DNA from: an uncultured delta proteobacterium
Lineage (GTDB): Bacteria > Myxococcota > Myxococcia > Myxococcales > Myxococcaceae
DNA length: 64,000 nucleotides
Assembly: GCA_963771175.1 (NCBI GenBank)
Contig: CAVYSY010000033.1
Location: forward strand, 384,001 to 448,000
Reading direction: 5' to 3'
Part shown: piece after piece, positions 1-62,655 of the stretch
Layout of the letters: every line of letters begins with the position of its first letter
How positions within the stretch are numbered: the first letter of the stretch is position 1
Made by a program: the position numbers and the translations under genes
Notes under the pieces: model-generated
Databases searched by the model: none
What the model saw: only the letters and a program-made list of their open reading frames with translations
Told to the model about the DNA's origin: nothing

Positions 1-1379
1 GTGATGAAGAGGATGGGCAGCTCCCGCCACTCGGGCATGGAGCGCACGATGCGGCACAGGTCGAACCCGCTGGGGCCTGGCATCTCCACATCCAGCAGCA
101 GCAGGTCCGGCCGGTGCTCGGCCAGCGCCTCCACCAGGCGATAGGGGTCTCCTATCCCCACCACCTCCACCAGGGCGCTGGTCAGGGCGGCGCTGAGGAC
201 ACGCACCGCTTCGGGGTCATCATCCAGCACCAGCACGCGTGAGCGTTCCGGGCGTCGGGCGGCCACCATCCGCTCCACCGCCTCCGTCAGGTCACGCGCG
301 GAGAAGGGCCGGGGCAGGTAGAGGGACGCACCGGCATGGGCCGCCGCCACCCGGTAGGCCACGTCTCCCTCCGTTCCGAAGAAGGCCAGCGGCAGGGACT
401 GCAACCCGTCCTCACCGCGCAATCGCGCCGCCGTGGTGAAGCCTCCCTCCCGGCCTCCCAGGTTGACGTGCAGCAGCGCTCCATCCAGCTCCCGCCGCCG
501 CGCGGCCGCCACCACCTCGTCCGCGCTGCGAGCCGTCACCACCCGCACCAGCAGGTCCTTCCCCATCCGCTCCACTTCGGCCAGCCACGCCTCATCCTCG
601 TCCGCCACCAACACCGTGCCCTGGGATTGCACCGGGCCCGCGCTCTCCACCAGCGTGGACACCGCGCCCTGGGCCACCTCGGCCAGTTCTCGCAACGCCC
701 TGCGCACGGAGCCCGGGTCCACCGGGGCCTTGTCGTCCCGGGCCTGTTTCAGCAATGCCTCCAGGCGCCCCGCCGCCGCGCTCACGGCGCCGAAGCCACA
801 GGAGCCCGCCGTCCCATGCAGCTTGTGGGCATGCAGGTACGCCTCCCGCAGGGACTCGCGCTCGCCTTGCAGCACCCGATCCACCACCGCCGTCAGCAGC
901 CGGATCTTCTCTCCCAGCTGGGCGCCATACTCGGAGCTCAGCGCCGCCATGGCGGTGATCACCTCGTCACTGGCGCCCTCCAACAGCGACGCGGAGCGCG
1001 AGTCCGCTGGCTCGGCCAGCACCTGCTCCACCCAGAAGAACAGCTCCTGGGGGGTGTAGGGCTTGTGCACCACCCGCGCCACCCTGAGCTGCCGGTTGAG
1101 GTGGTCGTGGCTCGTGAGATCCTTCCAGAAGGCGGAGGCGAAGACGATGGGGAGGGTCGGCTCCGTCTGGCGCAGTTCCTGGATGAACTCCACCCCGCTC
1201 ATCCCCGGGAGCATTCCATCCACGATGGTGGCGTCCACCCGGACGCGTGCCAGCACCTCGCGCGCCTCCGCGGCGGTTCGGGCCGACTCCACACGGTAGC
1301 CCCGATCACGCAGGTAGGTGGAGATGAGCGACTGCAGGTCTGCATCGTCATCGAGGAAGAGAAGCGTTCCGCGACTCAT
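1..1379 (-). CDS. Multidomain response regulator (REC-Hpt-pseudoREC-REC), runs off the window's left edge; output domain not visible
   Basis: Manual translation from ATG 1379 (GAGGTG RBS): MSRGTLLFLDDD...IVDGMLPG (REC), HKLHGTAGSCGF (Hpt), GALLHVNL (REC with Asp->His), RVLVLDDD...LLLDVEMPG (REC). Absent from the ORF track because it has no stop codon in the window. Confidence 0.9.
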   Translation of the reverse strand, partial: MSRGTLLFLDDDADLQSLISTYLRDRGYRVESARTAAEAREVLARVRVDATIVDGMLPGMSGVEFIQELRQTEPTLPIVFASAFWKDLTSHDHLNRQLRVARVVHKPYTPQELFFWVEQVLAEPADSRSASLLEGASDEVITAMAALSSEYGAQLGEKIRLLTAVVDRVLQGERESLREAYLHAHKLHGTAGSCGFGAVSAAAGRLEALLKQARDDKAPVDPGSVRRALRELAEVAQGAVSTLVESAGPVQSQGTVLVADEDEAWLAEVERMGKDLLVRVVTARSADEVVAAARRRELDGALLHVNLGGREGGFTTAARLRGEDGLQSLPLAFFGTEGDVAYRVAAAHAGASLYLPRPFSARDLTEAVERMVAARRPERSRVLVLDDDPEAVRVLSAALTSALVEVVGIGDPYRLVEALAEHRPDLLLLDVEMPGPSGFDLCRIVRSMPEWRELPILFI

Positions 1380-1486
1380 ACGGACACCTCGGGCGGGGCG
1401 GGTGGAATCATGGGAGGGCTCGCAGGGAGGCGGGCGGGTATGGCGTGCCAGTCTAGCGAGGCCGAATCGGGGACGGGCGTGCATGT

Positions 1487-1770
1487 TCAGTGAAGCACCT
1501 CACTTCACGCGGAGTGGTGCTCCAACTGCACCGGCTCGGCCCACTCCTCCGCGAAGCGCCCCTGCGCTGCGGCCATGTCCTGGCGCCTCCGCTCGCCCCA
1601 GCGCTTCGAGCAGGTGGGACAAGCAAGCGGTGCGCTGGGTGCGCAGGCGCTACGGGCAAGCCCACTCGCCCGCGGCCCCCAGCAGCGTCTTGGCGTGGAG
1701 GTCCTCCGCGAAGAGGCCGGAGAGGAATTCATGGACCTGCTGCTCGTTGATAAATGAGGGGATGCCTGAG
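1487..1770 (-). mobile_element. Internally deleted IS4-like element remnant (MITE-like)
   Basis: Minus strand reads INEQQVHEFLSGLFAEDLHAK joined directly to TLLGAAGE; I recognise these as N- and C-terminal segments of myxobacterial IS4-family transposases. End sequence aaatgaggggatgcctgag at 1752-1770, with a degenerate inverted counterpart near 1487-1506. Confidence 0.55.
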
Positions 1771-1871
1771 GGGATAGACGTTACCGCGCCAACGCGAGGG
1801 GTGACGGCGGCGAGCACGCTGGTACACCTGGTCGCGCTGTGCCAGCAGTTGAGCCTCGCGGCCGGACGCGC

Positions 1872-2567
1872 CTACCCGCCGGAAGCGAGCTTCTTTCGCC
1901 GAGCAAGCTCCGCTTCGGTCGGCTTGTCCAACGCGAACGACCCGGTCTTCACCTCTCCGGCGCGTTCGTACGTCGCGATGACGACACCAGTCGGTGAGAC
2001 AGCGGACTTCGTGAGCTTCAATGCACCGGGCGCGATGCCGGGCCCGAACAGCCGTTTCCCCCGGCCGAGCAGCACCGGGTAGATGAGGAGACGCAGCTCA
2101 TCGACGAGCTGATCCGCGAGCAACGTCTGGAGCAGCTCGCTGCTGCCCTGAACGAGCAACACCGGACCCTCCTGCTTCTTGAGCGCGCGCACCGCGTCCG
2201 CGACGTCCTCGCCGAGCCACTGCGTGTTCTTCCAGGTGAGCGTCTCGGGGGAGTGGGTGGCCACGTACTTGGTCGCGCGGTTGAACGTCTCCGCGACCTG
2301 AGCGTTCAGCGTGTCGAAGGTGCTCTTCGAAGGATCGGTCTGGATGTAGGGCCAATACGCCGCGAAGATGTCGTAGGTGCGCCGGCCGAGAAGAAGGTCG
2401 AAGGGCTGCGAAAAGCCTTCGCCGAGCGACGCACCAATGGTGTCATCCGAATACGGCATCGTCCAGCCGCCGAACTGGAAGCCACCGGTCGGATCCTCCT
2501 CCGGACCACCCGGCGCCTGCATCACGCCATCGAGACTGACGAATACTCCGGCCACGACTCTTCGCAT
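1872..2567 (-). CDS. Dihydrofolate reductase family / RibD C-terminal domain protein
   Basis: MRRVVAGVFVSLDGVMQAPGG, LLLGRRTY, VQGSSEL, LVDELRLLIYPVLLGRGKRLF; aaggag RBS. Confidence 0.92.
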   Translation of the reverse strand: MRRVVAGVFVSLDGVMQAPGGPEEDPTGGFQFGGWTMPYSDDTIGASLGEGFSQPFDLLLGRRTYDIFAAYWPYIQTDPSKSTFDTLNAQVAETFNRATKYVATHSPETLTWKNTQWLGEDVADAVRALKKQEGPVLLVQGSSELLQTLLADQLVDELRLLIYPVLLGRGKRLFGPGIAPGALKLTKSAVSPTGVVIATYERAGEVKTGSFALDKPTEAELARRKKLASGG

Positions 2568-2600
2568 GGAGCTGCTCCTTCGAAAGGGGTTCAGACCTAC

Positions 2601-2627
2601 GACGAACGGTCCCGGCGGGGATCGACA
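2601..2627 (-). promoter_or_regulatory. Putative ECF sigma promoter (TGTCGA-N17-CGTC, ECF42-type) upstream of the DHFR-family gene
   Basis: Minus strand tgtcga tccccgccgggaccgtt cgtc, preceded by an A-tract, about 35 nt upstream of the ATG. Confidence 0.5.
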
Positions 2628-2951
2628 TGGCCGCGAAGATTTTTTCCCGGTCCGCGGCAGTGCAGGGCCGACACGAGCCGGCTCCACAGCTCGCCGCCGG
2701 TACGGCCATCATCGGCGGAGAGTGAGCGTGTCCATGCACGGTAGCCAGGCCCAGCCCGGGCCTCGTCGTTGTCGAACCTTCATGAATGTTCCCCCTTGAG
2801 GAGCCAGAGGCTCCCGCCGCGAAGCTCTACACGGCCCTGCCCGCCTTCAAGCGACCTGCACCGGGGGGAGAGGCGAGCGGCAATGGGGCATAGGAAAGCC
2901 CAGCACTCATCACGTACACTGCTCATCCCTGGACCTCCTTCGAAACAGCCG

Positions 2952-3398
2952 TCACGGGCCCGCGGGCGCAGCGGGTCCGTAGAGCTCGAGCTCCGAGACA
3001 GAGTACGAGTTGTCTTCCCACTCCAGCACCCCCATGTGGCACACGGCTGACCTGGCCGCACTGGCTTGAGGAGAGCGGCAGGGAGTTGTGGGTCGTGGCT
3101 GCGCCAAACTCAACACCACGCCTGCTGGGGTAGCCCCTGCGCCGGGGCTCGCCTGGCAGGCCGCGTGGGCAGTCCCAGGTGCTCCACAATGGCGCGCCCC
3201 CCGCTGGGTGCTGTCTCGTACGCCAGCACTCGCCGCCTGCCTCCACACCTCACGCAGGCTCACGCCTCCCTCCCCTGGCACGAAGACTCCGTCCGGTACC
3301 AGCGCATGGGTGACCCGCCAAGCTCTTACTCGACTTCCCTGAAGGGGGTTGGCACACGCCCCCACCCACTCGGGAGAGGTCCCCGGGCAGGCGAGCAC
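2952..3398 (-). CDS. Possible small or degenerate ORF directly downstream of the vWA gene (discoidin-like C-terminus?)
   Basis: Starts 4 nt after the vWA gene stop and ends ...NSYSVSELELYGP; the middle does not read like a protein and may be frameshifted. Confidence 0.25.
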   Translation of the reverse strand: MLACPGTSPEWVGACANPLQGSRVRAWRVTHALVPDGVFVPGEGGVSLREVWRQAASAGVRDSTQRGARHCGAPGTAHAACQASPGAGATPAGVVLSLAQPRPTTPCRSPQASAARSAVCHMGVLEWEDNSYSVSELELYGPAAPAGP

Positions 3399-3402
3399 TC
3401 GC

Positions 3403-5481
3403 TCAACTCCACTTCATGTAGAGGTTGCCCACCCGGTACACCATGTTGGGCGTGTACCCGAGCGCCAGTTCCTCGGCCGGTACGGGCTCCCACTTCCCGG
3501 TGCGCTGCACCTTTCGCTCGAGCCCTCCCGCGGTGACGAAGCGCGTGGAGCCACCGGGCCCCGCTTCGAGCACGAGCACGGCCGCACGCGGAGAGCGCAC
3601 GAAGTCGCCTCCCGCGTTCAGGCACATCCGGGCGTTGCGGTAGAAACCACGGGTGCCACCGGGAGTCTCGCGCAGAGTGAGGGCCGAGGCGCGCTTGAGC
3701 CCCATCTCCGAGCCCGCCACGTAGACGCTGGCGGCCGGGTCGAAGTCGCTCGGCCGGACGAAGCCCATGACGACCCAGCCGAAGAAGAGCATGCCCCCCG
3801 CCAGGGCGAGCCAGGGCCACCAGCAGCGCAGCCAGCCCGTCTCCGACACCCTCACGAGTGCCGGGACCGTCACGGCGGCGGCGGCGTAGTGCGGGTGGCC
3901 GGCGGCGAAGAGCACCCCGATTCCCGGCGGGGCGAGCTGTCCGCAGCACCCCTCGGCGACGAAGCAGATTTCATACTTGAGCGGCTGTCCCTTGCGGCCA
4001 TTGCCCAGGTCCGCCTCGGAGCCCGCGACGGGCGCGCAGGAGAGCAGGCCTCCCTCCACAATCCCCTGCGCGGTGCAGGAGATGGGGACACGGTCCGCGT
4101 TGGTGGAGCGAGACAGGTCCACCACCGAGCACCGGCGCGTCTCGCTTCGCTCTCCCCGCCACTCGCCGAAGTCGAGCGAGGCCGGATTGGGCACCAGGGC
4201 GAGGTCGAGGAAGCCCTCCACCTGCACGGCCCGGCGCGCGCTCTGCTCCATCCACGCGTTGCGGAAGGTCACCGACACCGGCGTGGACGCGCCGTCCCGC
4301 GAGGGCTCCGAGGGCGTCCAGTCCGCCACGAAGCGCCCTCCCCCGGTGTGGCGCAGGGGCACCTCCTGGCCGTCGATGGTGGCCACTGCCGCGAAGCCGT
4401 CCGCCTGGAAGAAGGTCTCGTCGTCGAAGGTCTTCCCGCGGAAGAGCAGCCGTGCGTCGAGCTGCACCGGCTCGCCTACTCGCGCGGTGGGAGGCACGGC
4501 TAGCGAGGCCTCGAGGTCGTACCGAAGGATGAGGCCGTAATCGATGTCGCCCGACCCCTTCGGCAGCGACAGCGTCCAGCGACTGCGCGCGTCCGGCGAG
4601 TTGGGCGCACGAAAGACCTGGTAGTTGCGGTGCGGGGGCCGGCACAGCTTGGGCGCGTTGGCGTAACGGAGATTCGGCGGGCAGCCGTTGTCACCCGAGG
4701 CCTGGGACGGGACGTTGCCCTGGGGCCCCTCCAGCTTCGCGGTATAGGCGGGCCCGGGCGAGGCGGACGCCGTGGCCACCAGCACCTCCACCACGTACTT
4801 GCCCACCTCGAAAGTCTTCGACTGGCCGGGGGACAGCGAGCCCGTCTCCGGCCGTGAGCCGAGGACGCGGGCATAGCCCCGGGTGAAGGCGCCAATCACC
4901 TCGCGCGGCGTCTGGACGAAGACGAGGTCCTGCGGGTTGCGCGCCAGCGGACGGAGGAACTGCTCGCCCGTCTGGCGGACCTCGTCGCTGCCGAAGAGGC
5001 CGATGACCAGCGTCTCGAAGTCGGCCGACTCGGAGAGGCCAAGGGACCGGGGACCCTCGGAGGGGTCCCTCAGGTCCTCGGGGATGCCGTCGGTGAAGAA
5101 GAGGAACAGCCGGTTCTGGAGCGCCGAGCTTCGCAGCCGGTTGCCCGCCTCTTCCAGCGGGCGGCGGAAGAAGGTGCCGTTCGCGTAGGGCAGCGCGCGA
5201 ATGTCGTCCGCGCTCTGGGCCGGGCGAGGCGGGGCGTCCTTGCCATCACCAAAGGCCAGCACGCTGACCCGGTCGGCCGAGCCACGTGCCAGTCCCTCGA
5301 CGACGAGCGTGCCGAGCACCGCGGCGCGCTCGGGGTCATTGGGAGGCACCCGGCGCCCCGTCGTCTGGTCCCGGGCCTCCACGCCCATGGAGCACGAGTT
5401 GTCGAGGATGAGGACGATCTCGTTGCCACCGCCGGCCGCGCCGGTGAGGAGCAGGGGCAGGACGAGCTGCGCGAACGTCAT
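3403..5481 (-). CDS. Single-pass membrane protein: signal peptide, vWA (MIDAS) domain, beta-rich Cys-containing ectodomain, TM, ~120-aa cytoplasmic domain
   Basis: IVLILDNSCSMG (DxSxS), LFFTDG, TM WWPWLALAGGMLFFGWVVMGF; 692-aa ORF. Confidence 0.88.
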   Translation of the reverse strand: MTFAQLVLPLLLTGAAGGGNEIVLILDNSCSMGVEARDQTTGRRVPPNDPERAAVLGTLVVEGLARGSADRVSVLAFGDGKDAPPRPAQSADDIRALPYANGTFFRRPLEEAGNRLRSSALQNRLFLFFTDGIPEDLRDPSEGPRSLGLSESADFETLVIGLFGSDEVRQTGEQFLRPLARNPQDLVFVQTPREVIGAFTRGYARVLGSRPETGSLSPGQSKTFEVGKYVVEVLVATASASPGPAYTAKLEGPQGNVPSQASGDNGCPPNLRYANAPKLCRPPHRNYQVFRAPNSPDARSRWTLSLPKGSGDIDYGLILRYDLEASLAVPPTARVGEPVQLDARLLFRGKTFDDETFFQADGFAAVATIDGQEVPLRHTGGGRFVADWTPSEPSRDGASTPVSVTFRNAWMEQSARRAVQVEGFLDLALVPNPASLDFGEWRGERSETRRCSVVDLSRSTNADRVPISCTAQGIVEGGLLSCAPVAGSEADLGNGRKGQPLKYEICFVAEGCCGQLAPPGIGVLFAAGHPHYAAAAVTVPALVRVSETGWLRCWWPWLALAGGMLFFGWVVMGFVRPSDFDPAASVYVAGSEMGLKRASALTLRETPGGTRGFYRNARMCLNAGGDFVRSPRAAVLVLEAGPGGSTRFVTAGGLERKVQRTGKWEPVPAEELALGYTPNMVYRVGNLYMKWS

Positions 5482-7664
5482 CTAGAGCTCCACCTTGAAG
5501 TACGTGCCCCCGGCCCGGTACAGCACCGAGGGGGAAGGAACGTGTCCCTGGGCCAGGTCCGTCACCGGCTCCCACTTGAGGGTGCGGCGATCCTGCTGCT
5601 CCAGGGGGCCACTGCCCTGTCAGCACCACACCGGCACCGCGGGTGGCGCGAAGCACGATGGGCGCGTTCCGGATGCGGCCATTCACCTCGCCATCGCCGT
5701 GCAGGCCCAGCCGGGCATCCCGGAAGAAGCCGGGACTGCTGCCGGGGCAGTCTTGGAGGAGGATGGCGGCGGCCTGTCGCATGCCGCGATCGCTCCCGGC
5801 CACGCGGATGGACGTGCCGGGCGGGAAGCGCGAGGGCTGGGTGAAGCCGGCGAGCAGCACACCGAAGCCGAGCAGCGCCAGCGAGGGCCACACCCACGCG
5901 CCATGGCAGCCGAGGAAGCCCTGGCCCTCGACCTTCCAGCGCAGACGCACCGTCTTCTCCTGGGCCTTGAACTCGGGGGTGAGCGGCACCACGCGCAGCA
6001 CGGCCGAGTCCGGCGACACGTCCCCGGCGCACCGAGGCACCTCCAGGCAGATGTCGAGTCGGCGCTCCCTCGGGTCCAACGCATCGATGCCGAGCGAGGG
6101 CAACAAGCCGCGCACGTCCGCCTGTCCCAGCGCATTGAGGAAGCTGAGCACCGGGCGAGCCTGGCAGCCGTCGAGCCCCTCGGCGCGCAACTCCCAGCGG
6201 TGCTCCTCGGCGCCCTGGGAGCGGCTGAAGTCGAGCTTCTGGCAGGCCTCCGTCACGGCGGTGCCCGCGGCGATGGTGCCGAAGTCCAGCGTCTCCGGCA
6301 GCTCCAGCCTGAGCTGGGGGCGCACCCGCACTTCGTGCGCGGGCATCGAGAATGGGCCCTCGCGGCGTCTGGAACACGACCGACCAGCTCGCGGCCTGGG
6401 GCTCGGCGTAGGTGACGCTGAACTCGTACCGGTCATCCGGTCGGGGCGGCCCGCTGTAGCGCACCTCGCCGGTGTCCACCATGCGGGCCTCCACCTTGGG
6501 GTCCGCGAGGAGCGCGTCCACCTGCTGGCGACCCGTACCCGGTGCCGGGCGGAGGAGCCGAACCGTGCCCCGGCAGGGAAGCCCGGCGTAGCAGGTGCGC
6601 GGCAGCTCCGAGGTGTCGAAGCCGAGCCCGAGGTCGCTCACCGTGGCCGTGACTTCCTCCGTGGGGCACACCACGCGATCGCCCGCGCGGCCGCCCGCGC
6701 TGATGCGTACCTCGCGCGGCTTGGGGGAGGCGGGTGGCGTCCATGCGGCCGAGAGCGAGCCATCGGCGGGAATCGTCCCCGGCTTCTCCCCTTCCACCTG
6801 GACAGTGAACGCCAGCGAGAGTCCCGCGGGTGGCGAAGTCACGGGCACCTGCCCCGCCGCATCGAAGAGTCTCGCGCTCAGCAGGGTGGACTGTCCGGCC
6901 ACGAGCGCCTCATGCACGGTGGGCTGCACCACGCGCGCCCGGTAGCTGCACACCTCCACCTTCAGACTCTGGGCCTCGGAGGCCGCCGCACGGAGCTGCT
7001 CGTTCTGGGCGAGTGGCGGCGCCATGGGGACGAACTCGATACGCAAGGAGCTGGAGGGCGGAAGGGAGAACCCGGCCGACACGGTGCCGTCGGGTTGCAC
7101 GGTGCCTCGATGCTCGGAGGTCTGGCCATTCGCGTCGGTGACGCGGAAGGTGCCGCCGGTGATGCGGCGCAGCGCCCCGTGCTCATCGCGAACCGCTCCC
7201 ACCACCGTCACCTCATCCCCGGCGGTGTACGGCCCCGGGGAGATGCGCTCCACCCGAGCGTCGAGTTGCACGGGCGGAGGCGGCGGAGGGGGCGTGACGG
7301 GCTTGCCGTCGATGACGTGCGCCACCAGGTTGTCCGCGCCGTGCTTCTCCCCGTAGAGCCGCGCGCACTCGTACGGCTCCGCGCGCCGGTAGGTCCCCGA
7401 AGAGCGCGAGAGGAACTTCGGAATGCAGGTGGAGTCCTCCTCGTCGTAGCAGACGAAGCACTCCTGACCGTTGGTGACCCAGCAGTGGTAGTGCCACTTG
7501 GAGTGCATCGCGCGTACGGCCGGCATGTCGCACGCGGCCACCACGTTCGGCGGAGTCCCCTCATACCCTCCAACGCAGTAGGTGTCCCCTTCCTGCGCCC
7601 GAGCAGACGTGGCCAGCAGGAACGACACAACGGCGAGCAGCGCTGGGAGCGCGCGGGCCATCAT
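5482..7664 (-). CDS. Large single-pass membrane protein (signal peptide, Cys-rich N-domain, Ig-like region, TM, cytoplasmic domain); two frameshifts (~6345, ~5615)
   Basis: Pieced from three frames: MMARALPALLAVVSFLLATSARA...; ...MPAHEVRVRPQLRLELPETLDFG...; ...GPLEQQDRRTLKWEPV...GGTYFKVEL*. The start overlaps the PP2C stop (ATGA), and the TAG abuts the next gene's ATG. Confidence 0.78.
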
Positions 7665-8773
7665 TTCCCTCCGTCGGGAGACGGCTGTCCACCTACGGTG
7701 GGCGGTACCGGAGCCTGCTCGGGAGAGGAGGAAGCGCCACCACTCGTGGCCCTCAGCCCCAAGGCGAGGCCCACGCCCAGTGCCAGCACACCCGTCGCGA
7801 GCAGCCACCACAGGGGAACCCGGCGCCCGGATTTCCCCGTGGGTGCGACGGTCTCGGACACGGGCGGCGAAGCGGACTCGACCGTGCGCTGCTCGGGCCT
7901 CGGCGCGGCCTGTGTTGGTGCCACGGAAACAGGCGTCGGGGGCACCACCACCGAGGCCAGGGGCATCCCGTCCGGCAGCGTCTCCCGACGTCGCTCCTGG
8001 GGCTCCTGCACCACGCGCGGCACCTCCGGCTGACCCGCCACGAGGAGGATGACCGTGATGTTGTCGGCGCCTCCGCGCTCGTTGGCGATCTGGATGAGCC
8101 GCGTCACCGCGTCCTGATAGTCGCGGCCCTCGATGAGCGGGTACAGCTCGTGGTCCTCGATGAAGTCGTACAGCCCGTCGCTGCACAGCAGCACCACGTC
8201 ACCGGACTTCAGCTCCAGCGGCTCCGTCCAGACCTCGGGCTTGAAACTCTTCTGGACTCCCGGGCTTCCCCCCAGCGCCTGCACGAGTACGTGCGCGTCC
8301 GGGTGTTGCCTCGCCTCCTCGGGCGTGAGGATGCCGTGGCTGACCATCTGCGCGACCCTCGTGTGGTCTCGCGTGCGGTCGATCAGCGCGCCGGCTCGGA
8401 ACTGGTAGAGGCGGCTGTCACCCACCCAGCCGACGTAGCAGCGCCCCTCCAGCACCCAGCCGATGACGCCCGTCGTCCCCATGCCCTCCACGCCTCGAGT
8501 GAGCGAGGTCTCGACCACGGCCTGGTTGGCCTCGACGAACGCCTGATAGAGGGCGCGGGGCGGGTTCTCGGGCGAGCTGGCGGAGATGACCTCGACGATG
8601 CGATCGCTGGCCACCTGGCTGGCCACCTCACCGGCCTCGTGGCCACCCATGCCGTCACAGACGACGAGCAGCCGCGAGCCATCCGGCGGGGCGGCGACGC
8701 GGAAGGAGTCCTCGTTCTGGGCGCGCTGGCGCCCCACGTCGGAGCTCCCGTGGATGTAGAGCGGGAGGCTCAT
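7661..8773 (-). CDS. PP2C/PPM-family Ser/Thr phosphatase (Stp1/PrpC-like) with C-terminal TM
   Basis: SDVGRQRAQNED, VCDGMGGH, GMGTT, VGDSR, LLCSDGL, GGADNIT; TM LWWLLATGVLALGVGLALGL. Confidence 0.95.
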   Translation of the reverse strand: MSLPLYIHGSSDVGRQRAQNEDSFRVAAPPDGSRLLVVCDGMGGHEAGEVASQVASDRIVEVISASSPENPPRALYQAFVEANQAVVETSLTRGVEGMGTTGVIGWVLEGRCYVGWVGDSRLYQFRAGALIDRTRDHTRVAQMVSHGILTPEEARQHPDAHVLVQALGGSPGVQKSFKPEVWTEPLELKSGDVVLLCSDGLYDFIEDHELYPLIEGRDYQDAVTRLIQIANERGGADNITVILLVAGQPEVPRVVQEPQERRRETLPDGMPLASVVVPPTPVSVAPTQAAPRPEQRTVESASPPVSETVAPTGKSGRRVPLWWLLATGVLALGVGLALGLRATSGGASSSPEQAPVPPTVGGQPSPDGGK

Positions 8774-10836
8774 TCGTCATCTCCCCTCGCGGGTGCGTAG
8801 AGGGTCCTGGCCTTCGCCCGAGGCGCCTCGGCGGCTGGCTGCGGTGCGTCGGGAGCAACCGGAGGCGCGGCGACGATGGGCGCACCGGCCGGAGGCGGCT
8901 CGGCGGAGGGCTGGAGCCCGGGCTGCTCCAGTGTGAGTTCCAGGTGCTGCGACAGGCGGATGGTCTGACCGGACTTCACCTGGACGCGCTCGCCCGGGTT
9001 CAGGCGGCGTCCGTCCACGAAGGTGCCGTTGGTGGAGTTCTCGTCCTTGACGAAGACGTTGCCCGCCTTGAAGAGCTGCACGGTCGCGTGGTGTCCGCTG
9101 AGCTGGGGCAAGTCCACGGCGAGGTCCATCTCTCCCGACCGTGCGCCAATGGTGAACGAGGACTTGTGGACCCGGTAGAACGGCTCGAGGCCAGGAGGCC
9201 CCCGGGTCACCATCAGCCGGGTCTCCGGCAGCGTGGCGAAGGGGTCCTTCCACACCACGGGAGCAGCCGGAGGAGGCTCGGGCTGTGCGGGGGGCGGCTC
9301 GGGCGCGGGGGGAGCCGCGGGCTTCGCCTCCTGAACGGGAGCCGGAGCAGGTGTCGAGCGGCTCCGGGACAACAGCACGATGAGCACGACCAACAGGAGC
9401 AGCCCCAGGCCCAGGAGCAACAGCACGAGCAGCCACCAAGGCCACACGCGAGGAGCCTGCACGGAGACGGGTCCCCCCATTCCACCACCGGGCTGCATCG
9501 CCGGCCCGGGAACGCCCGTCCCCGCTCCGGGTTGTGTCGAGGCACCTGCGCTCCCCGCCGGAGGGCCTGGCCGCGAGCCCATCCCAGGACCCGGTCGCGT
9601 CGTGGAGCCGGAGGAGCCCGGCATGGTGCCGGGAGCAGTGGTGGACCCGGAGGTGCTCGGGGAGGTGCCGTGCCCGGTGGGAGATCCGGAGGTACTCGGG
9701 GAGGTGCCGTGCGCGGTGGCTGACCCGGAGGAGCCCGGTGTGGAACCAGAGGGTCGCGACGATCCGGAAGTCGTGCCCTTCGCGCTCCCTGGCTGTGTCG
9801 GGGAGGGCCCGGTGGCGACCGAGGAGGGACAGGCGATGGTCGCCCGGCCCTCGGCGCTCTGCCGGAAGGAGACGGGATCGCTCCAGGCGGTGCGAGCGCG
9901 ACCCGAGAGGGACTCCACGAAGAGCCGGTCCGAGGTCTGCCCGCGCTTCACACCGCAGAAGGCCACGTCCAACCAGTAGATGTGCTCCAGCGAGCGCACC
10001 AGCCCCCCGAGCGCCTGCCGGGCATCCACGTCCTCCACCTGGATGTAGCGGCCACCGGTGCCCGCGGCGAGCTGGGACATCTCGTCGAGTCGCTGGGCGA
10101 TGCCCTTGCCCCTGGTTCCATCACTGAAGACCACCACGTGGAGGCGCACACCCAGCTCGCGTGCATCACCAACGAGCTTCTTCAGGCTGAGCGCGCTCGA
10201 CTCCTCGCCGGCATCGGTGAAGACGATGACCTCGCGCGAGCCACCCTTGGAGAGCGGCTGCTTGCGAGCGGCCTCGCGCATCGCGTCCTGGATGTAGAAC
10301 TTGAGCCGGGTGACGAGCTGGTGCGTTCCGAGCCGCTGGACCTTGTCCAGGCACGCCTCGAGACCGGCGGCGGAGGTCTCCTGACAGTGGGTGGCCTTGC
10401 TCTTCCCGAAGGTCATGACCGCCACGGTGTGGTTCCGTGGACGGGGACCGAGTGCTCCCGCGTAGGCCTTCGCGAGCTCGAAGGCCTGTGGCCAGTGCGA
10501 GGAGAAGGACCCGGACTGGTCGAAGGCGAGGATCGTGTAGCTCCCCTCCCCGGTGTCGGCCAGCCGCTGGAGCGCGGTGACCTGCGCGCCGGCCTGGCCC
10601 ACGGCGACGCGGAAGCGCTCCGGAGAGGCACCGGCCGCCCGCAGCTCCTTCTGGAGGGTGGGGTCGGTGACCTCGAACTGGAGCCGCATCTGCCCGGCGG
10701 ACGCGGGCGGCGTCGCGAGCACGGTGAGACCATTGTCGGCGGCGCTCGCGGGAGCCCCCACGAGGAGCACGGCGAGCAGGCTCGCCATCATGATGGCTGT
10801 GCGATGGATGTGCATCCCCCCTCCAGAGGAGCTCAC
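8770..10836 (-). CDS. vWA domain + Ser/Thr/Gly/Pro stalk + TM + cytoplasmic FHA domain protein
   Basis: Signal peptide; LAFDQSGS (DxSxS) and VFTD; TM WWLLVLLLLGLGLLLLVVLIVLL; FHA motifs IGAR, SGHH, STNGT. Confidence 0.9.
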   Translation of the reverse strand: MSSSGGGMHIHRTAIMMASLLAVLLVGAPASAADNGLTVLATPPASAGQMRLQFEVTDPTLQKELRAAGASPERFRVAVGQAGAQVTALQRLADTGEGSYTILAFDQSGSFSSHWPQAFELAKAYAGALGPRPRNHTVAVMTFGKSKATHCQETSAAGLEACLDKVQRLGTHQLVTRLKFYIQDAMREAARKQPLSKGGSREVIVFTDAGEESSALSLKKLVGDARELGVRLHVVVFSDGTRGKGIAQRLDEMSQLAAGTGGRYIQVEDVDARQALGGLVRSLEHIYWLDVAFCGVKRGQTSDRLFVESLSGRARTAWSDPVSFRQSAEGRATIACPSSVATGPSPTQPGSAKGTTSGSSRPSGSTPGSSGSATAHGTSPSTSGSPTGHGTSPSTSGSTTAPGTMPGSSGSTTRPGPGMGSRPGPPAGSAGASTQPGAGTGVPGPAMQPGGGMGGPVSVQAPRVWPWWLLVLLLLGLGLLLLVVLIVLLSRSRSTPAPAPVQEAKPAAPPAPEPPPAQPEPPPAAPVVWKDPFATLPETRLMVTRGPPGLEPFYRVHKSSFTIGARSGEMDLAVDLPQLSGHHATVQLFKAGNVFVKDENSTNGTFVDGRRLNPGERVQVKSGQTIRLSQHLELTLEQPGLQPSAEPPPAGAPIVAAPPVAPDAPQPAAEAPRAKARTLYAPARGDDE
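9605..9778 (-). repeat. ~4.5 imperfect 39-bp tandem repeats encoding 13-aa units (HGTSPSTSGSPTG-like)
   Basis: Units begin at 9605, 9644, 9683, 9722 and 9761 (ga[gct]ccgga...). Confidence 0.85.
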
Positions 10837-11585
10837 GGGGAACGTCGGGACAGCAGTGACTCGGGCACGATGACGAGCACCAGGGTCATCCCTCCCAGTG
10901 AGAGCACCGCGTGGTTCTGGAGAACGACCTGCTCACCGTGGACGACGGCCCCGTTGACGATGGAGCCGTTGCTGGAGACGTCCATGTACGAGGCGTCCTC
11001 GGCGCGGATGAACAGGAAGGCGTGCTGGCCGCTCACGCGTCCGTCATCGACCACCACGTCGCACTCGGCGTTGCGACCGAGCACGTTGCGCCCGGCGCGC
11101 AGTGGGTGGACGCGCCCGGGGTCGTTGGGGCCGCGGTACTCGAAGAGGGCGCCACGGATGAGGCCCGCGGCCGTCCCCTCGTTGGCGGTCTCCACGATCG
11201 TCCGGGCCTTGGGGCGCGGAGCGGCGGGCGCCGGGGCCGCGGCTGGCGCCGGTGGCATGGCGGCGGGCGCGGGCGCGGCGGCCGGACGGGAGGGCGGAAG
11301 AGATGCGGCGGCGAAGGGGTCGCGAGGATCGAAGGTGGGCCGGGGCGGAGGATTGGCGAAGAAGTCCGCGCTGCGGCGAGGGATGGGCGGAGGAGGCGCC
11401 GCCGCCGGATCCGGCTCGAAGATGGTGTGCCGCTTCTGGTGCGGGTTGGCCGGCTGGGGCGGCGGAGGCGGCGCGGGAGCGCTCTCGGCGACCGTGCCGT
11501 GCTTGGGAGGCGTCAGGTCCAAGCCGCACATGTCGCAATAGGCGGCGCCGACGGCGTTCTCGTTCTGGCAGGAAGGACAGCGCAT
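10833..11585 (-). CDS. Zinc-ribbon + Pro-rich linker + FHA domain protein
   Basis: MRCPSC...YCDMC; FHA motifs LGRN, SGQH, SSNG; its stop overlaps the next gene's start. Confidence 0.9.
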   Translation of the reverse strand: MRCPSCQNENAVGAAYCDMCGLDLTPPKHGTVAESAPAPPPPPQPANPHQKRHTIFEPDPAAAPPPPIPRRSADFFANPPPRPTFDPRDPFAAASLPPSRPAAAPAPAAMPPAPAAAPAPAAPRPKARTIVETANEGTAAGLIRGALFEYRGPNDPGRVHPLRAGRNVLGRNAECDVVVDDGRVSGQHAFLFIRAEDASYMDVSSNGSIVNGAVVHGEQVVLQNHAVLSLGGMTLVLVIVPESLLSRRSP

Positions 11586-12207
11586 GGGGGGCGTGTATCC
11601 GACTCTAGGGCACGCTCTGGAGGAAACTCCAGCCGGACGGGGCTCCCGGAGCCGTACGCACGAGCCCCTCGGGGATTGCAGACCTCCCCTCGACGCGTCC
11701 CGAGGCCGAAGTGCCCGCTCCCGTGGCTCCCGTTCCACAACCGCCGCCTCCATCACCCCCGCCGCCCCCCGAGACCCGCTCCCTGGCATGCGTTCCGCGC
11801 CCGGCACCTTCGTCGCCAGCCATTCCAGAGCATGGCGGACATGCCAGCGAGGAGCAGTGTCCCGCCCAGGGTCAGCGCCAGGAGTGCCCCGAGCTTGCCC
11901 ATCGCCGGAACACCCCCGAAGGACGCCCTTCGAGGGCTCGGTCCTTCGGTCTCAGCCCCGATCGGGCTTCGACCGCCTGGTCTCGCGTAGACGGTCGCCC
12001 GGCGATACTTGTCCCGGGTCAACAACTCATCCCTGGGCGGCCATCGGCACGGGCAGTGTCTAGCTTCAGTGGCGTACCGGCTCGAGTCAGTGACGTAACG
12101 GCTCGTCATCGAGGACACGAGCGTCAGCGCGGTTCTCGAACGATGCCCGGCTGACAAACATAGCGGGGTGCAGGCTGTCGGGCGCCGGCTTGAATGGAGG
12201 CATGAAT

Positions 12208-13271
12208 ATGCTCACCGTCGTCTATGACACAAAACCCTACGACCGGGAGCAACTGCTCGCGGCTGCTCCTCGGGACACACTCCAGTGGCAGTTCTGGGAC
12301 TTCCGGCTCAGCACCGAGACCGCGCGGACTGCGAGCGGGGCGCAGGCCGTCTGCGTCTTCGTGAACGACGTGGTGGACCGGCCGTGCCTGCAAGACGCTC
12401 GGCGGGCTGGGCGTGAAGCTGCTGGCCCTCCGTTGCACGGGGTACAACAACGTCGATCTCCGCGCTGCGCGAGAGGCGGGCATCACCGTCACGCGCGTGC
12501 CCGTCTACTCCCCCTACGCCGTGGCTGAGCACGCCGTGGCCCTGCTGCTGACGCTCAATCGAAAGATCCACCGCGCATTCAACCGCGTGCGCGAACAGAA
12601 CTTCTCGCTGAACGGCCTGGTCGGCACCGACTTGCACGGCAAGACCGCCGGGATCTTCGGCACCGGCAAGATCGGCCGCATCACCGCCCAGATCCTGCGC
12701 GGCTTCGGCATGCGCATCCTGGCCTTTGACGCGTTCCCGGCCTCCGAGTGGGCGCGGCAGATCGGCGTGGAGTACGTCGACGCCCAGCACCCTCGCGCGC
12801 GAGAGCGACGTCATCTCGCTTCACGTGCCGCTGACGCCCGAGACCAGGCACATCATCCGCGGCGAGACCCTGGAGCTGATGAAGCCGGGGGCAATCCTGA
12901 TCAACGTGAGCCGTGGTCGCCTGATCGACACCACCGCGCTGATCGCCGCGTTGAAGGCCGACAAGCTGGGCGGCGTGGCGCTGGACGTCTACGAGGAGGA
13001 GGAAGGCGTCTTCTTCGAGGACCTGTCCGGCCAGGTGCTCCAGGACGATGAGCTGGCGCGGCTGCTGACGTTCCCCAAGGTCCTGGTCACCGCCCACCAG
13101 GCGTTCCTGACCCGGGAGGCGCTGGGTGACATCGCCCGGACGACCGTGGCGAACCTGGAGGCGCTGGCCGCGGGTCGGCCCTTCGTCGACGGTTCCGTGC
13201 TGACCGCGGTCGACGATCCGTGCGACCGCGGTCCCGCTGTCCTGCGAAGCGAAGTCGGGAAGCTCGCCTGA
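12208..13271 (+). CDS. ldhA: D-lactate dehydrogenase (2-hydroxyacid dehydrogenase), frameshifted at ~12400 and ~12790
   Basis: [56 protein letters not shown] spread across three frames. Confidence 0.88.
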
Positions 13272-13286
13272 TTCATCGGAGGCCCC

Positions 13287-14750
13287 ATGTCACTGCCTGA
13301 CCACAAGACCAAGATCGTCGCGACCATCGGGCCGGCTTCCGACTCGCCCGAGATGCTCGAGCGGCTGATCGCCGCCGGGTTGAACGTCGCGCGGCTGAAC
13401 TTCTCGCACGGCGACTTCACGGCGCACGCCGGGACGATCGCCCGCCTCCGGGCGGCCGAGAAGGCCGTGGGGCGGCCGGTCACCATCATGGCCGACCTGC
13501 CCGGACCCAAGATGCGGCTCGGCACGATCGACCCGGAGCCGATCAACCTCGTGGCCAACGACCGCTTCACCCTGACCACCGAGCCGATCACCGGCAACGC
13601 GAAGCGCGTCTCGATGAGCTTCGCGGCGCTGCCGAAGGTGGTCAGACCCGGCGACCGCCTGTTCCTGAACGACGGGCTGGTCCAGCTCGTCGTCGAGCGC
13701 GTCGCCGGCAACGACGTGGAGTGCGTGGTCGCGGTCGGCGGCGAGCTGCGCTCCCGCAAGGGGCTGAACCTCCCGGGGATCGACCTGGGGATCAGCGCCT
13801 TCACCGACCGGGACCGCGCCTGCCTGAGCTTCGCCCTGGAGCACGGCGTCGACGCTGTCAGCCAGTCCTTCGTGGAGACGGCGGCGGACATCGAGGCGGT
13901 GCGCGAGGCGGCCGCCGCGCGCGGGAAGCAGCCCTTCATCATCGCCAAGATCGAGCGTGCCGGCGCCCTCGAGCACTTCGACGAGATCCTGGCCGCCGCC
14001 GACGGAATCATGGTGGCCCGCGGGGACCTGGGCGTCGAGGTGCCGATCGAGGAGATCGCCCTGATCCAGAAGGAGCTGATCGCCCGGGCGAACCTCGCGG
14101 GCAAGCCGGTCATCACCGCCACGCAGATGCTCGAGTCCATGGTGTCCAGCCGCCTCCCGACGCGCGCCGAGGCCACCGACGTGGCCAACGCCATCCTCGA
14201 CGGCACCGACTGCGTCATGCTCTCCGCCGAGTCGGCGATGGGCCGCTATCCCGGTGGAGGCCGTCGCGATGCTGGCGAGCATCGCGGCCGCGACCGAGGC
14301 GAAGCGCCCGGCCAGGCGGCTTGCCGACCAGCGGGCGGACGGCTCCGGCTGGCAAGCCGACGACGGCGGCGGAGGCCATTGCGTCGGTCGTGGAGCACGC
14401 GCTGGAGACCGTCCCGTGCGCGGCGGTGGTGGTGCCGACGCAGGAGCGGGACCACCGCCCGGATGATCTCCCGGTTCAAGCCGGCGGTGTGGGTGGTCGC
14501 GGTGAGCAGCGACCCGGCGGTCTGCCGTGGCCTGGCATTCTCGTATGGGGTGCTGGCCGTCCTGCAGCCGGACGAGCCGGCGGACTGGCGAAGGTTTTCG
14601 GTGGACTGGGTCCGCCAGGAGCAGGTCGCCGGACCGCTGGTCATGCTGGTCTCGGGTCCCTCGAAGAGCGACCCGCAGGCGAACTACCGCCTCGAGTTCA
14701 TCAGTACCGGCGAGCGAGCCCTCGCTCCCGAAGTGGAAGCTCCGCATTGA
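13287..14750 (+). CDS. pyk: Pyruvate kinase, with compensating frameshifts ~14250-14450
   Basis: [57 protein letters not shown]. Confidence 0.95.
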
Positions 14751-14874
14751 CAGGGTTCGACCCTCGCGAGCTCGTCCCACTCGTCAACGCAGTGGGCAGT
14801 CCTTAGCTTCATTGCGAACTCTTCGGGGGACACCAGTCATGGCACAACCAGTCGCCAAGCAACGAGAAGAGACG

Positions 14875-15922
14875 ATGCGGGGTGCGATCCTGCCGGGCAA
14901 TCGGACGGTGGAGTTCAGGGAAATCCCCATCCCCCAGCCGCAGCACGGGCAGGTGCTGGTCAAGATAAAGGCCTCGAGCCATCTGCGGCAGCGACATCCG
15001 CGCCATCTATCGGGCTCACATCGGCGAAGGGGCCGAGCGTTACATCCCCGGCATGATCGCCGGACACGAGCCGAGCGGGGAGGTCGCGGCGGTCGGACCG
15101 GGTTGCCAGGCGCTGCGGATCGGCGATCGCGTGTCCGTCTACCACATCAGCGGCTGTGGGGTCTGCGACGACTGCCGCCACGGCTACCAGATCAGTTGCA
15201 CCAACCCGGCGCGGGCCGCGTATGGCTGGCAAAGGCACGGCGGCCATGCGCCGTGGATGCTGGCGGACGAGCGCGACTGCATCCCGCTGCCCGCGAGCCT
15301 GTCCTACGTTGACGGCGCCCTGTGCGCTTGCGGTCGTCGGTACCGCCTGGGAAGCCCTGACGCGGATCGGCGTCACCGGCAGCGATGCGCCTGCTGGTGA
15401 CGGGTCTGGGGCCGGTCGGAATGGGCGTGGCGATGCTGGGCAAGGCGCTGGGAGCAAACAAGGTCATCGGCACGGAAGTGTCGGCGGTGCGGCGAAAGCT
15501 GGCCATGGACCTCGGCCTGGTCGACGAGGCCCTGGAAGCGGACGACAAGGCGCTGGCCCGGATCAAGGACCTCACGCGCGGCCGGGGATGCGAGGCCAGC
15601 GTCGATTGCTCGGGGTCGGCAGCGGGGCGATTGCTGGCCCTGCACGGCACGCGACAGTGGGGGCGATGCGCGTTCGTCGGTGAAGGCGGCAAGGTCGAGT
15701 TCGACGTCTCGCCAGTGCTGATTCATCCGCAGATCACGCTGTACGGGTCCTGGGTGACTTCGCTCAAGCATATGAGCGATCTCTTCGATCGCCTCGACCG
15801 CTGGGGGGTGCACCCGGAGAAGATCGTCACGCACCCGCTTGCCGCTGAGCGAGGCGGCGCGCGGCTACCAGCTGGCCGACCAGGGCGAGGCCGGCAAGGT
15901 GTGCTTCGTCTTCGACATCTGA
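14875..15922 (+). CDS. Zn-dependent medium-chain alcohol/sugar-alcohol dehydrogenase, several frameshifts
   Basis: ICGSD, GHEPSG, structural Zn motif CGVCDDC...C, GLGPVG; ends ...GKVCFVFDI*. Confidence 0.85.
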
Positions 15923-15943
15923 CCTCGAGAGGAGTCACGCCGC

Positions 15944-16921: not shown

Positions 16922-16957
16922 CCTGCCAGTAAGCGCCTTTCCTTGGCCGAGGTGAGG

Positions 16958-17005
16958 ACAATGGCCAACATGAACGATGGCTGACATGAACAATGGCTGA
17001 CATGA
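16958..17005 (+). repeat. Three tandem 16-bp direct repeats upstream of pfk
   Basis: acaatggccaacatga / acgatggctgacatga / acaatggctgacatga. Confidence 0.9.
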
Positions 17006-17020
17006 AGGGGAGGCGCGGAC

Positions 17021-18120: not shown

Positions 18121-18346
18121 ACCCCAGGGAGGGCGTCCCACCAAGCGCGGAATCGTAGAGGCCGTTGCGCTCCTACTATTGGTTACGCGGGGTGTGGCGG
18201 GTGGTGGACACAACCTCGGGCCAAAGGGTGCCGGAGCTTGCACGTACGATCAGCCACGCGCATTGCTCCCTGCGGGGGAGACGCGGACCAACCCGGGCGT
18301 GCTCGCTGACACGCCCACCCTTCTCCGACCACAGGGGGATTCCGGT

Positions 18347-19936: not shown

Positions 19937-19946
19937 GGAGTCTACC

Positions 19947-20972: not shown

Positions 20973-20992
20973 GTGACCTTGGAGACTCATCC

Positions 20993-23784: not shown

Positions 23785-23786
23785 CC

Positions 23787-30265: not shown

Positions 30266-30424
30266 GGGAGGTGGGTGTTTAACGGCGGAAGTCGGGCCCG
30301 CCAACGGAATCCGAGACGTTGGAGCGAGGCCCCCCACCCCGCCTGCGCCATCGGCATTCGCAGGAGCGCCTGACAGCGCTACCATGAAGCCCCCCCTGAT
30401 TTCCCCCCCGTCGAGGCCGTCCGA

Positions 30425-56651: not shown

Positions 56652-56755
56652 GGCGGGGAACGCACGGAGGGATGTTGGGTGGATGCACTTCCCCGTGCAT
56701 GCGCGAGGCGCCCGTGGGTGGGTCATGTTAGTCTACACCACCTTGGAGGTGGTGC

Positions 56756-62636: not shown

Positions 62637-62655
62637 GGGGGTACCCAACCCTCCC

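Follow-up and report, generated by a model that had tools for sequence, protein, structure and literature searches.

We analysed a 64,000-nucleotide stretch of DNA (hereafter the window; C33:384001-448000 of the source genome, G000) from an uncultured delta proteobacterium of the family Myxococcaceae, and in particular a set of five genes, G1 to G5, which lie on its minus strand between window positions 3403 and 11585. These five genes probably constitute the envelope-spanning receptor and phosphothreonine (pThr) control arm of a conserved Myxococcota cluster of 10-12 genes that is centred on the tubulin-like GTPase FtsZl1. As judged from sequence, the system belongs with the vWA/FtsZl1 clusters that were predicted in 2010 and represents a variant from Myxococcota, joined here by a layer of FHA, PP2C and kinase genes. 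Its gene order is conserved far beyond the genus Archangium, to which the window is assigned by the names that near-identical proteins carry. An initial annotation, made from the window alone, had presented the five genes as an undescribed and self-contained transmembrane signalling system whose kinase is supplied in trans. That proposal is partly supported: it was right about the architecture and about the coupling of receptors to pThr signalling, i.e. predicted exported vWA domains, single transmembrane (TM) segments, cytoplasmic pThr-reading domains and a membrane PP2C, but wrong about the autonomy of the system and the missing kinase.

Gene order and the tubulin-like core of the cluster

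The five genes are co-oriented, and their junctions are as first annotated: G1 and G2 share a GTGA overlap (10833/10836), G2 and G3 (8770/8773) and G3 and G4 (7661/7664) each share an ATGA overlap, and the TAG stop of G4 (5482) directly abuts the ATG start of G5 (5481). Such overlapping and abutting genes make translational coupling plausible; a scan of 2600-12800 for promoters and terminators returned 0 and 0 sites and is uninformative at the 70% G+C of the window. Conservation of this order was followed in 22 loci mapped by tblastn, comprising 15 loci with G5 relatives from a scan of one genome per species and stretches of seven genomes, the source included; the count for each gene takes in only those loci that cover its position (three-digit G and L handles below denote genomes and loci). 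The five-gene synteny, which had been suggested as a check on the initial annotation, was indeed recovered, with G1 found in 19 of 20 loci, G2 in 20 of 21, G3 in 18 of 21 and G4 in 17 of 21.

This synteny extends well past G5. A same-strand FtsZl1 gene lies downstream of G5 in 20 of the 22 loci, the two remaining ones being short contigs, one from a genome with a Tubulin_2 gene on another contig. In 11 loci (L019, L020, L022, L023-L028, G232 and G133) FtsZl1 starts less than 100 bp from G5, and in Archangium genomes other than the source the gap is 1-6 kb. The FtsZl1 gene of the source genome (C33:369781-373002, minus strand) lies beyond the window, 14.4 kb past G5, and is followed on the same strand by two further genes, Z2 and Z3, and by two Pkinase genes. 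FtsZl1 proteins of these loci are 1060-1110 residues long and match Pfam Tubulin_2 over the initial 355 (1e-50 to 1e-58); the tubulin signature AGGTGSG is intact, and a charged, helix-prone extension of about 670 residues follows. A sequence search of solved structures with FtsZl1 returned 0 matches.

The linkage is mirrored in phyletic patterns. In a sample of 301 genomes drawn evenly from the phylum, Tubulin_2 was found in 14 and the G5 family in seven, which represent three lineages only; all seven G5-positive genomes are among the 14. Within one genus the G5 family was present in one of 29 genomes. The five genes accordingly form the upstream half of the FtsZl1 cluster, and neighbourhoods combining vWA proteins, FtsZl1 and kinases had been described computationally in 2010 (PMC2875224), which runs counter to the initial claim of an undescribed, self-contained system.

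Of the 12 loci with visible flanks, 9 have Hanks-type kinase genes adjoining the cluster. They are located after Z3 in G000, G006, G232 and G133, upstream of G1 in L024-L027 and on both sides of the cluster in L023; no kinase was found in the fetched stretch of L018, L019 or L028. The initial statement that the operon lacks a kinase holds for the five genes and the window only; the extended cluster of this genome closes with a pair of kinase genes, and supply in trans is not supported in view of the kinases that stand beside the cluster.

Of the two genes that follow FtsZl1, Z2 encodes a protein of about 790 residues with one or more TM segments in its middle, and Z3 a protein of about 925 residues that has five TM segments in its N-terminal part and a Zn-binding domain of the MrfA type at its C-terminus; among sequences of solved structures Z3 matched YprA at E 0.088. 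A BLASTP comparison of Z2 with FtsZl1 gave nothing significant. When the N-terminal regions of nine Z2 proteins were compared by hhalign with the N-domains of nine FtsZl1 proteins, residues 154-245 of Z2 aligned with 266-361 of FtsZl1 (87 columns, E 4.1e-4, probability 34.6%).

A smaller version of the cluster points to what its core might be. Genomes G261 (L041) and G283 (L043) possess Tubulin_2 and lack the G5 family proper; they carry a four-gene cassette coding for a 687-residue vWA protein (Pfam VWA 1.1e-12) with a C-terminal part like that of G4 and G5, FtsZl1, a Z2-like protein and a Z3-like protein with an MZB domain. No FHA or PP2C genes were found within 8 kb upstream of the cassette in either genome. 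Because this cassette occurs without FHA and PP2C genes in another Myxococcota lineage, the core on sequence grounds comprises a receptor with the tail, FtsZl1, Z2 and Z3, with G1-G3 and the kinases as an added regulatory layer. A third kind of locus, in G145 (L040:11374-19359), encodes a longer FtsZl1 of 1332 residues with a weak C-terminal GYF_2 match, followed by a receiver-DnaJ protein and then a kinase with a PEGA domain; no G4/G5-type gene was found at this locus by tblastn.

Receptors, FHA-fold tails and the phosphothreonine genes

G5 (3403..5481, minus strand) encodes a 692-residue protein with an N-terminal hydrophobic leader, a vWA domain (residues 20-208, about 4858-5424), an Ig-like β-sandwich stalk with conserved cysteines (residues 209-546), a TM segment (residues 550-574, about 3760-3834) and a C-terminal tail (residues 582-692, 3406-3738) with a predicted FHA fold. 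G5 returned no Pfam match at E<=0.01 and no NCBIfam match, and its vWA domain was recognised by structure prediction and Foldseek. The AlphaFold model (mean predicted local distance difference test score, pLDDT, 87.7) comprises the vWA domain, the β-sandwich stalk, a long TM helix and a small β-rich C-terminal domain. Foldseek matches of the ectodomain include the vWA-Ig pilus adhesins PitA, SpaC and RrgA, the bacterial vWA protein 4fx5, integrin beta3 and ANTXR2, and the ArnAB complex 8s05 is also among the matches of G5. In an alignment of 23 homologues the metal-ion-dependent adhesion site (MIDAS; DNSCS in G5) residues D27, S29, S31, T103 and D131 are invariant throughout, as are five cysteines, and a hydrophobic leader stands at the start of all 23. 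The initial inference that the vWA domains of both G2 and G5 retain the MIDAS and are exported is borne out at the level of sequence. The homologues of G5 form 89 clusters at 90% identity and reach down to 32% identity; those that are named come from Archangium or from Myxococcota metagenome-assembled genomes (MAGs) and are labelled 'hypothetical' or 'vWA domain-containing'.

G4 (5482..7664, minus strand) has a comparable layout, i.e. a signal peptide, a Cys/His-rich N-terminal domain, an Ig-like stalk, a TM segment and an FHA-like tail, in agreement with the single-pass, Cys-rich and Ig-like architecture first assigned to it. In this assembly, though, it is not one open frame, being spread over three frames by two extra bases (see below), and searches were made with an intact orthologue from G016. 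Neither Pfam (at E<=0.01) nor NCBIfam returned a match for the G4 pieces. Its homologues form 62 clusters at 90% identity, and in 22 sequences the N-terminal domain retains C32, H56, W59, H60, H62, C71, C74, D76, E77, D79, C82 and C102 without exception. The last ~270 residues of G4 resemble G5 at 31-37% identity. The initial description of G4 and G5 as paired receptors had missed both this common FHA-fold tail and the frame breaks.

For structure comparison the tail was taken as the last 153 residues of G5 and folded together with 19 diverse relatives of the module, giving a model with pLDDT 93.8. Foldseek placed the ArnA FHA domain first (E 9.9e-3), and the rows that it listed are, with a single exception, FHA domains or the FHA-like domains of type III secretion systems (T3SS). 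VIA-align against 48,161 chains yielded 110 matches at Z>=2, of which 32 reach Z>=5, while no chain reaches Z>=8; the top match is the FHA domain of Ki67 (Z 7.0, root-mean-square deviation 2.7 over 84 residues), and 50 of the 50 listed rows are FHA or FHA-like. Further matches are the FHA-like domains of YscD, PscD, MxiG and EssC. According to the models, the tails of G4 and G5 have an FHA fold and are not canonical FHA domains by sequence: invariant positions are limited to R76, G86 and G146, within a conserved PGGxRGFYRxA loop, and the phosphate-binding Ser, His and Asn of canonical FHA domains (PF00498) are not recognisable. No score in a protein-atlas look-up exceeded 0.79, and an FHA cluster ranked second there, which is a lead only; a search of solved-structure sequences with the tail profile gave one chance-level match.

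By sequence the tail module is widespread. Searching 50%-identity representatives with G5 gave 266 matches, most of which cover residues ~430-690 alone; a word-indexed search with residues 545-692 returned 39 proteins, namely G5 orthologues and one other. Among 35 tail-module representatives, three have an N-terminal PP2C domain fused to the receptor, one has FG-GAP repeats, three have filamin-type Ig repeats (one of these also VWA, which occurs in two in total) and one has CarboxypepD_reg; three others have weak or no listed matches and 23 have no match. The PP2C fusions agree with the predicted topology, in which phosphatase and tail are inside the cell and the head is outside. A complex prediction for residues 425-692 of G5 with 455-728 of G4 scored 0.00 against a mark of 0.32 and is counted neither way.

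The second MIDAS receptor, G2 (8770..10836, minus strand; 688 residues), consists of a signal peptide, a vWA domain with the MIDAS motif DQSGS (residues 101-272, about 10021-10536; Pfam VWA 4.8e-10), a Ser/Thr/Gly/Pro-rich stalk, a hydrophobic TM segment (residues 466-488, about 9373-9441), a Pro-rich linker and an FHA domain (residues 562-628, about 8953-9153; Pfam FHA 1.3e-14). The MIDAS DxSxS is retained in distant orthologues. G1 (10833..11585, minus strand; 250 residues) is a cytoplasmic protein with a Zn-ribbon (residues 3-25), a Pro-rich linker and a canonical FHA domain (residues 155-238, about 10872-11123; Pfam FHA 1.7e-11). An alignment of the FHA domains of the cluster (A3) shows the motif GR...SxxH...NG conserved among the G1-type rows; the G2 domains keep SxxH and NG and usually not the Arg beside the Gly. 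G3 (7661..8773, minus strand; 370 residues) combines a PP2C domain (residues 8-244, about 8042-8752; Pfam PP2C_2 1.4e-14) with a C-terminal TM anchor (residues 319-341, about 7751-7819), scores 220.6 bits with NCBIfam Stp1/IreP, just under the cut-off of 230, and contains the motifs NED, DGMGG, GDSR, DG and DN; it looks to be a catalytically complete membrane-anchored phosphatase. Pfam hence bears out the domains first assigned to these three genes, as the structural model does for the vWA domain of G5; the Zn-ribbon of G1 falls under the curated Pfam cut-off (Zn_Ribbon_1, 5.7e-4).

The G2 stalk varies among lineages. In two distant MAGs (L024:5721-6965 and L027:4477-6528) it consists of Cys-rich EGF-like repeats, whereas in Archangium it is Ser/Thr/Gly/Pro-rich low-complexity sequence, which marks the stalk as a variable spacer. 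An apparent open reading frame (ORF) fusing G1 and G2 in L024 was rejected as an out-of-frame read-through.

Proposed mechanism, known systems and competing readings

The MIDAS heads of G2 and G5 and the Cys/His-rich domain of G4 are each predicted to be joined via one TM segment to a cytoplasmic domain, which is FHA in G2 and FHA-fold in G4 and G5. The vWA heads would bind ligand in the envelope and the FHA-fold tails would dock the receptors onto an FtsZl1 assembly; the cluster kinases would phosphorylate threonines in linkers or in partners of FtsZl1, marks to be read by the canonical FHA domains in G1 and G2 and erased by PP2C. An envelope cue would thereby switch the assembly or anchoring of a tubulin-like polymer at the inner membrane. 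Our inference of contacts among the tubulin-like protein, the tails and the canonical FHA readers draws on gene order, domain fusions and folds. Candidates for the cellular purpose are membrane remodelling, envelope surveillance and conflict. A bolder form of the mechanism, offered tentatively and as a somewhat unlikely one, is a receptor-to-cytoskeleton machine: integrin-like exported MIDAS heads on Ig stalks, replaced by FG-GAP propellers in relatives, would be coupled to degenerate FHA-fold tails that nucleate or anchor an FtsZl1 filament and its membrane-inserted degenerate paralogue at the inner membrane, with the set of kinase, PP2C and canonical FHA proteins switching the anchoring according to what the heads bind.

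The closest described systems are themselves computational. Makarova and Koonin (2010; PMC2875224) defined FtsZl1 and its predicted operons and proposed a function in membrane remodelling; the parts that they list include intact-MIDAS vWA proteins, kinases, a diverged GTPase, OmpA-like proteins and lineage-specific membrane proteins. The cluster described here agrees with the operons of that account in tying Tubulin_2 (PF13809) to exported or membrane vWA proteins, Ser/Thr kinases and membrane proteins: intact MIDAS motifs are seen in G2 and G5, kinases in the loci noted above, and Tubulin_2 in the neighbourhood, which in the source genome is a neighbourhood and not an operon. It differs in the presence of FHA and PP2C genes and in that no P-loop GTPase or OmpA-like gene was found. 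The diverged P-loop GTPase is frequent and not obligatory in the 2010 operons; no G....GK[ST] motif is present in FtsZl1, Z2 or Z3 of Vitiosangium, and no GTPase family emerged in Pfam and NCBIfam scans of the cluster, which a very diverged GTPase could escape. The main text of PMC2875224 contains no occurrence of FHA, PP2C or phosphatase, and, as far as the available text goes, no mention of an FHA-fold tail on a vWA receptor; its supplement 5 has FHA in two rows and no rows for Myxococcus, Stigmatella, Sorangium or Haliangium.

A second relative is found among the systems that Kaur, Burroughs, Iyer and Aravind (2020; PMC7159879) assembled around GAP1-N2 GTPases, where in the text available a tubulin is likewise combined with an extracellular-vWA membrane protein, including an actinobacterial membrane FNIII-vWA protein with an uncharacterised β-rich domain. 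Those systems are described there as limited to Firmicutes and Actinobacteria, with a kinase, PP2C and vWA theme kept separate and the systems read as conflict systems; here, by contrast, kinase, PP2C, FHA and tubulin occur in one Myxococcota cluster. GAP1 and a GTPase with N-terminal zinc ribbons were not seen in Pfam and NCBIfam scans or a motif search, a weak test given that no dedicated GAP1 model was used. Tubulin_2 proteins were characterised by Santana-Molina et al. (2023; PMC9871819) as a sparse and divergent group of unclear history. Full-text searches of the literature outside subscription-only papers returned no paper describing this Myxococcota arrangement or reporting experiments on it.

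Other parallels are more partial. Archaellum expression is regulated by ArnA and ArnB, both of them soluble proteins of the cytoplasm. In Sulfolobus acidocaldarius, as far as the descriptions available extend, this pair couples a Zn-ribbon-FHA protein with a vWA protein under kinase and phosphatase control, and the present cluster holds the same kinds of component; unlike in ArnA/ArnB, its vWA domains are predicted to be extracytoplasmic and have a tubulin-like protein as partner. The TerY-P triad consists of a TerY-type vWA protein, a PP2C and a kinase encoded by adjacent genes in a ter context, the vWA protein being cytoplasmic and stand-alone. All three kinds of protein are found in our cluster, but its vWA domains are predicted to be exported and no ter genes are present in the window. 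In line with the initial annotation, we found no sign of ter or type VI secretion (T6SS) membership: the TagH model (TIGR03354) scored 27.3 bits against a cut-off of 120.25, and no T6SS families were found among the 38 window ORFs or in the extended cluster. Integrin and ANTXR-type receptors offer a functional analogy only, in having a MIDAS vWA head, Ig-like stalks, one TM segment and a tail that meets a cytoskeletal system; there is no evidence of common descent, the tail here is FHA-fold, and the cytoskeletal partner is deduced from gene order alone. The DRA0331-0334 operon of Deinococcus (10.64898/2026.01.23.701218) also combines vWA, a Ser/Thr protein kinase, FHA and PP2C, but its vWA protein is described as cytoplasmic and stand-alone and the abstract reports no tubulin-like gene.

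Several observations weigh against the assignment of G1-G5 to an FtsZl1-centred cluster or against parts of the proposed mechanism. The gap between G5 and FtsZl1 in the source genome holds unrelated genes over its 14.4 kb, and co-transcription of the two in this genome is excluded for that reason. The five-gene set is also incomplete in places, G3 being missing from L019, L020 and L021 and G4 from L014, L025 and L021, with a second vWA paralogue in place of G4 in L028. Export of the G5 vWA domain is a prediction based on hydrophobic leaders, conserved cysteines and the topology of fusions, and the alignment of Z2 with FtsZl1 is no more than suggestive of a degenerate paralogue. With regard to the tails, the structural scores are middling (Z<8, Foldseek E>=0.0099), though the matches agree completely on FHA; hhalign of the tail alignment (A2) against the cluster's own FHA domains gave a probability of 0.13%; and the invariant Arg and Gly are the only residues that could match those of canonical FHA. 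Since only R76, G86 and G146 are invariant and the tails have no Pfam or profile membership, pThr binding by them appears doubtful. Lastly, the searchable literature holds no experiment on any FtsZl1 system.

Against this background, four other explanations were weighed. That the five genes are a self-contained transmembrane pThr complex, sensing an envelope ligand or force with a kinase encoded elsewhere and no dedicated output machine, would fit their coupled junctions, the variable gap of 1-14 kb to FtsZl1 in Archangium and the three loci without a visible kinase; it is very unlikely in the face of the same-strand FtsZl1 gene in nearly all loci, its abutment on G5 in half of them, the Tubulin_2 gene in every G5-positive genome of the sample and the kinases alongside the cluster, the source genome included, and loci devoid of FHA and PP2C genes still have a G5-like protein ahead of FtsZl1. 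More weight, if still on the unlikely side, is given to the proposal that the whole cluster is a biological-conflict system, anti-phage or anti-competitor, in which an invader or damage would be sensed by the vWA heads, with the polymer as a threshold device or a scaffold for effectors. Such a role could go together with the mechanism set out above, and it would account for the patchy distribution among genomes and within the one genus; the spot between G5 and FtsZl1 is variable among Archangium and holds a Shedu SduA-like gene in the source genome, and tubulin with extracellular vWA, as well as kinase with PP2C and vWA, are treated as conflict systems in PMC7159879. Yet PADLOC gave no match for G1, G2, G4, G5, FtsZl1, Z2 or Z3, with only weak generic PP2C and generic kinase matches elsewhere in the cluster; neither GAP1 nor the P-loop motif was found, as noted, and no recognisable toxic effector domain was detected.

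An envelope growth or division module akin to the actinobacterial FhaA/FhaB/PstP/PknA/PknB set, with FtsZl1 as an auxiliary division or morphogenesis protein of the myxobacterial life cycle, is highly improbable: occurrence in seven of 301 genomes means that the cluster cannot serve a core growth function. The best NCBIfam match of the TM and FHA part of G2 is indeed FhaB/FipA (1.3e-11), G3 nearly reaches the Stp1/IreP cut-off and the kinase resembles Stk1/PknB kinase domains, but all scores are under the curated cut-offs (FhaB_Rv0019c a weak 44.8 bits for G2 and 32 for G1 against 125), and no RodA, penicillin-binding protein (PBP) or PASTA genes stand beside the cluster. A paper on a phospho-dependent FipA-FtsZ interaction is listed as retracted and was not used. 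Finally, G5 and G2 could be the stalked, adhesin-like heads of a surface adhesion or secretion apparatus, their FHA-fold tails acting as do the FHA-like domains of SctD in T3SS or EssC in type VII secretion systems. The pilus tip adhesins at the top of the G5 Foldseek matches and the resemblance of the tail to YscD, PscD, MxiG and EssC are in keeping with this, but the topology is the reverse of that of SctD, with the N-terminal head outside the cell, the SctD model scored 21.7 bits against a cut-off of 86 (GltG 23.9 against 650), and neither the window nor the extended cluster showed genes for a secretion ATPase, a secretin, a sortase or a pilin; we regard it as extremely unlikely.

If G1-G5 are the control arm of an FtsZl1 cluster, their wider bearing is as follows. 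FtsZl1/Tubulin_2 is a widespread branch of the tubulin superfamily, for which the available text of PMC2875224, PMC9871819 and PMC7159879 reports no tested function. The Myxococcota variant adds to the tubulin-like core a complete canonical pThr toolkit, consisting of kinases, PP2C and two FHA readers, of which one is soluble and the other membrane-bound. Culturable Archangium offers experimental handles, such as kinase-dead and PP2C mutants, FHA point mutants and tail truncations, with which to study how the assembly of a tubulin-like polymer is controlled in bacteria and what a vWA receptor detects in the envelope. Genes now annotated as 'hypothetical' or 'vWA domain-containing protein' become members of a definable cluster, and operon-level readings of this kind need a view beyond a 64-kb window.

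Frame breaks, the variable gap and neighbouring genes

The stretch occupied by G4 measures 2183 nt, which is not divisible by three, and is read in three successive frames, from 7664 to ~6353, from ~6352 to 5619 and from 5617 to 5482. The first break (6347..6353, minus strand) is due to one extra base, placed at 6347 by alignment with two relatives, and the second (5618, minus strand) to one extra base relative to the same two. Intact orthologues, two of which were inspected in full, have 727-728 residues. A search of 30 relatives found G5 in 17 of 17 same-genus genomes, with an uninterrupted G4-type gene directly upstream in 16 and none in the other. In contigs of four public runs that are 95-99% alike (X1, X2, X3 and X5), one base at 6352 or 6353 is omitted in all four and the base at 5618 in X1, X2 and X3, X5 having no cover there. 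The extra bases are not proven errors, because these runs come from related strains and not from the source strain (X1 has 51 differing letters in 2301 bases).

The window has at least eight further breaks of this sort in mid-domain, one Pfam domain continuing in another frame: 2-Hacid_dh_C, ADH_N/ADH_zinc_N, ABC_tran, ABC2_membrane_3 (twice), Radical_SAM_N (in three pieces) and Pkinase. OEP is split as well. We infer from these that the two G4 breaks are probably assembly indel errors. A programmed frameshift was considered and rejected, given the plain open frame in relatives and the many unrelated window genes broken alike. The frame-split genes lie at 12365-24910, 56443-58788 and 60717-62735, with none seen in the 24.9-47.7 kb interval. 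Their number, together with a rated completeness of 81.66% for the assembly (9.8 Mb in 58 contigs), suggests that it is rich in single-base indel errors.

The gap between G5 and FtsZl1 (C33:373003-387402, i.e. window 1-3402 together with L032:9003-20000) is specific to the source genome and marks a variable spot inside the cluster. It encodes a polysaccharide deacetylase, a HisKA fragment, a glyoxalase, a methyltransferase, a GGDEF protein, a receiver/Hpt protein, a RibD_C protein and a Shedu SduA-like nuclease (L032:17013-17978; Pfam SduA_C 3.6e-22, PADLOC SduA 5.2e-49). In some Archangium genomes only, the position between G5 and FtsZl1 is occupied by X603 (L032:9115-10923 and L013:990-2768, both minus strand), a protein of 593-603 residues with nine predicted TM segments and, at its N-terminus, a trypsin-like region in which the catalytic motif seems on visual inspection to be altered; it has no Pfam, NCBIfam or PADLOC match. 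At the other end of the cluster, a MAG locus lacking G4 has a second PP2C gene just after Z3 on the opposite strand (L025:20604-21344, minus).

Upstream of G1, the window encodes an 1807-residue protein with duplicated UvrA-like ABC modules (UvrA_inter, UvrA_DNA-bind; 24965-30385, minus strand). A gene of this type is the immediate same-strand neighbour upstream of G1 in at least seven other loci of Archangium or Vitiosangium and is without linkage to the cluster in distant lineages; in the source genome about 13 kb of glycolytic and efflux genes, many of them frame-broken, intervene between the two. Towards the far end of the window (58887-59813, plus strand), a broken kinase gene is adjoined by a gene for a DUF2381 protein (3.9e-40), DUF2381 being a paralogous family typical of Myxococcus.

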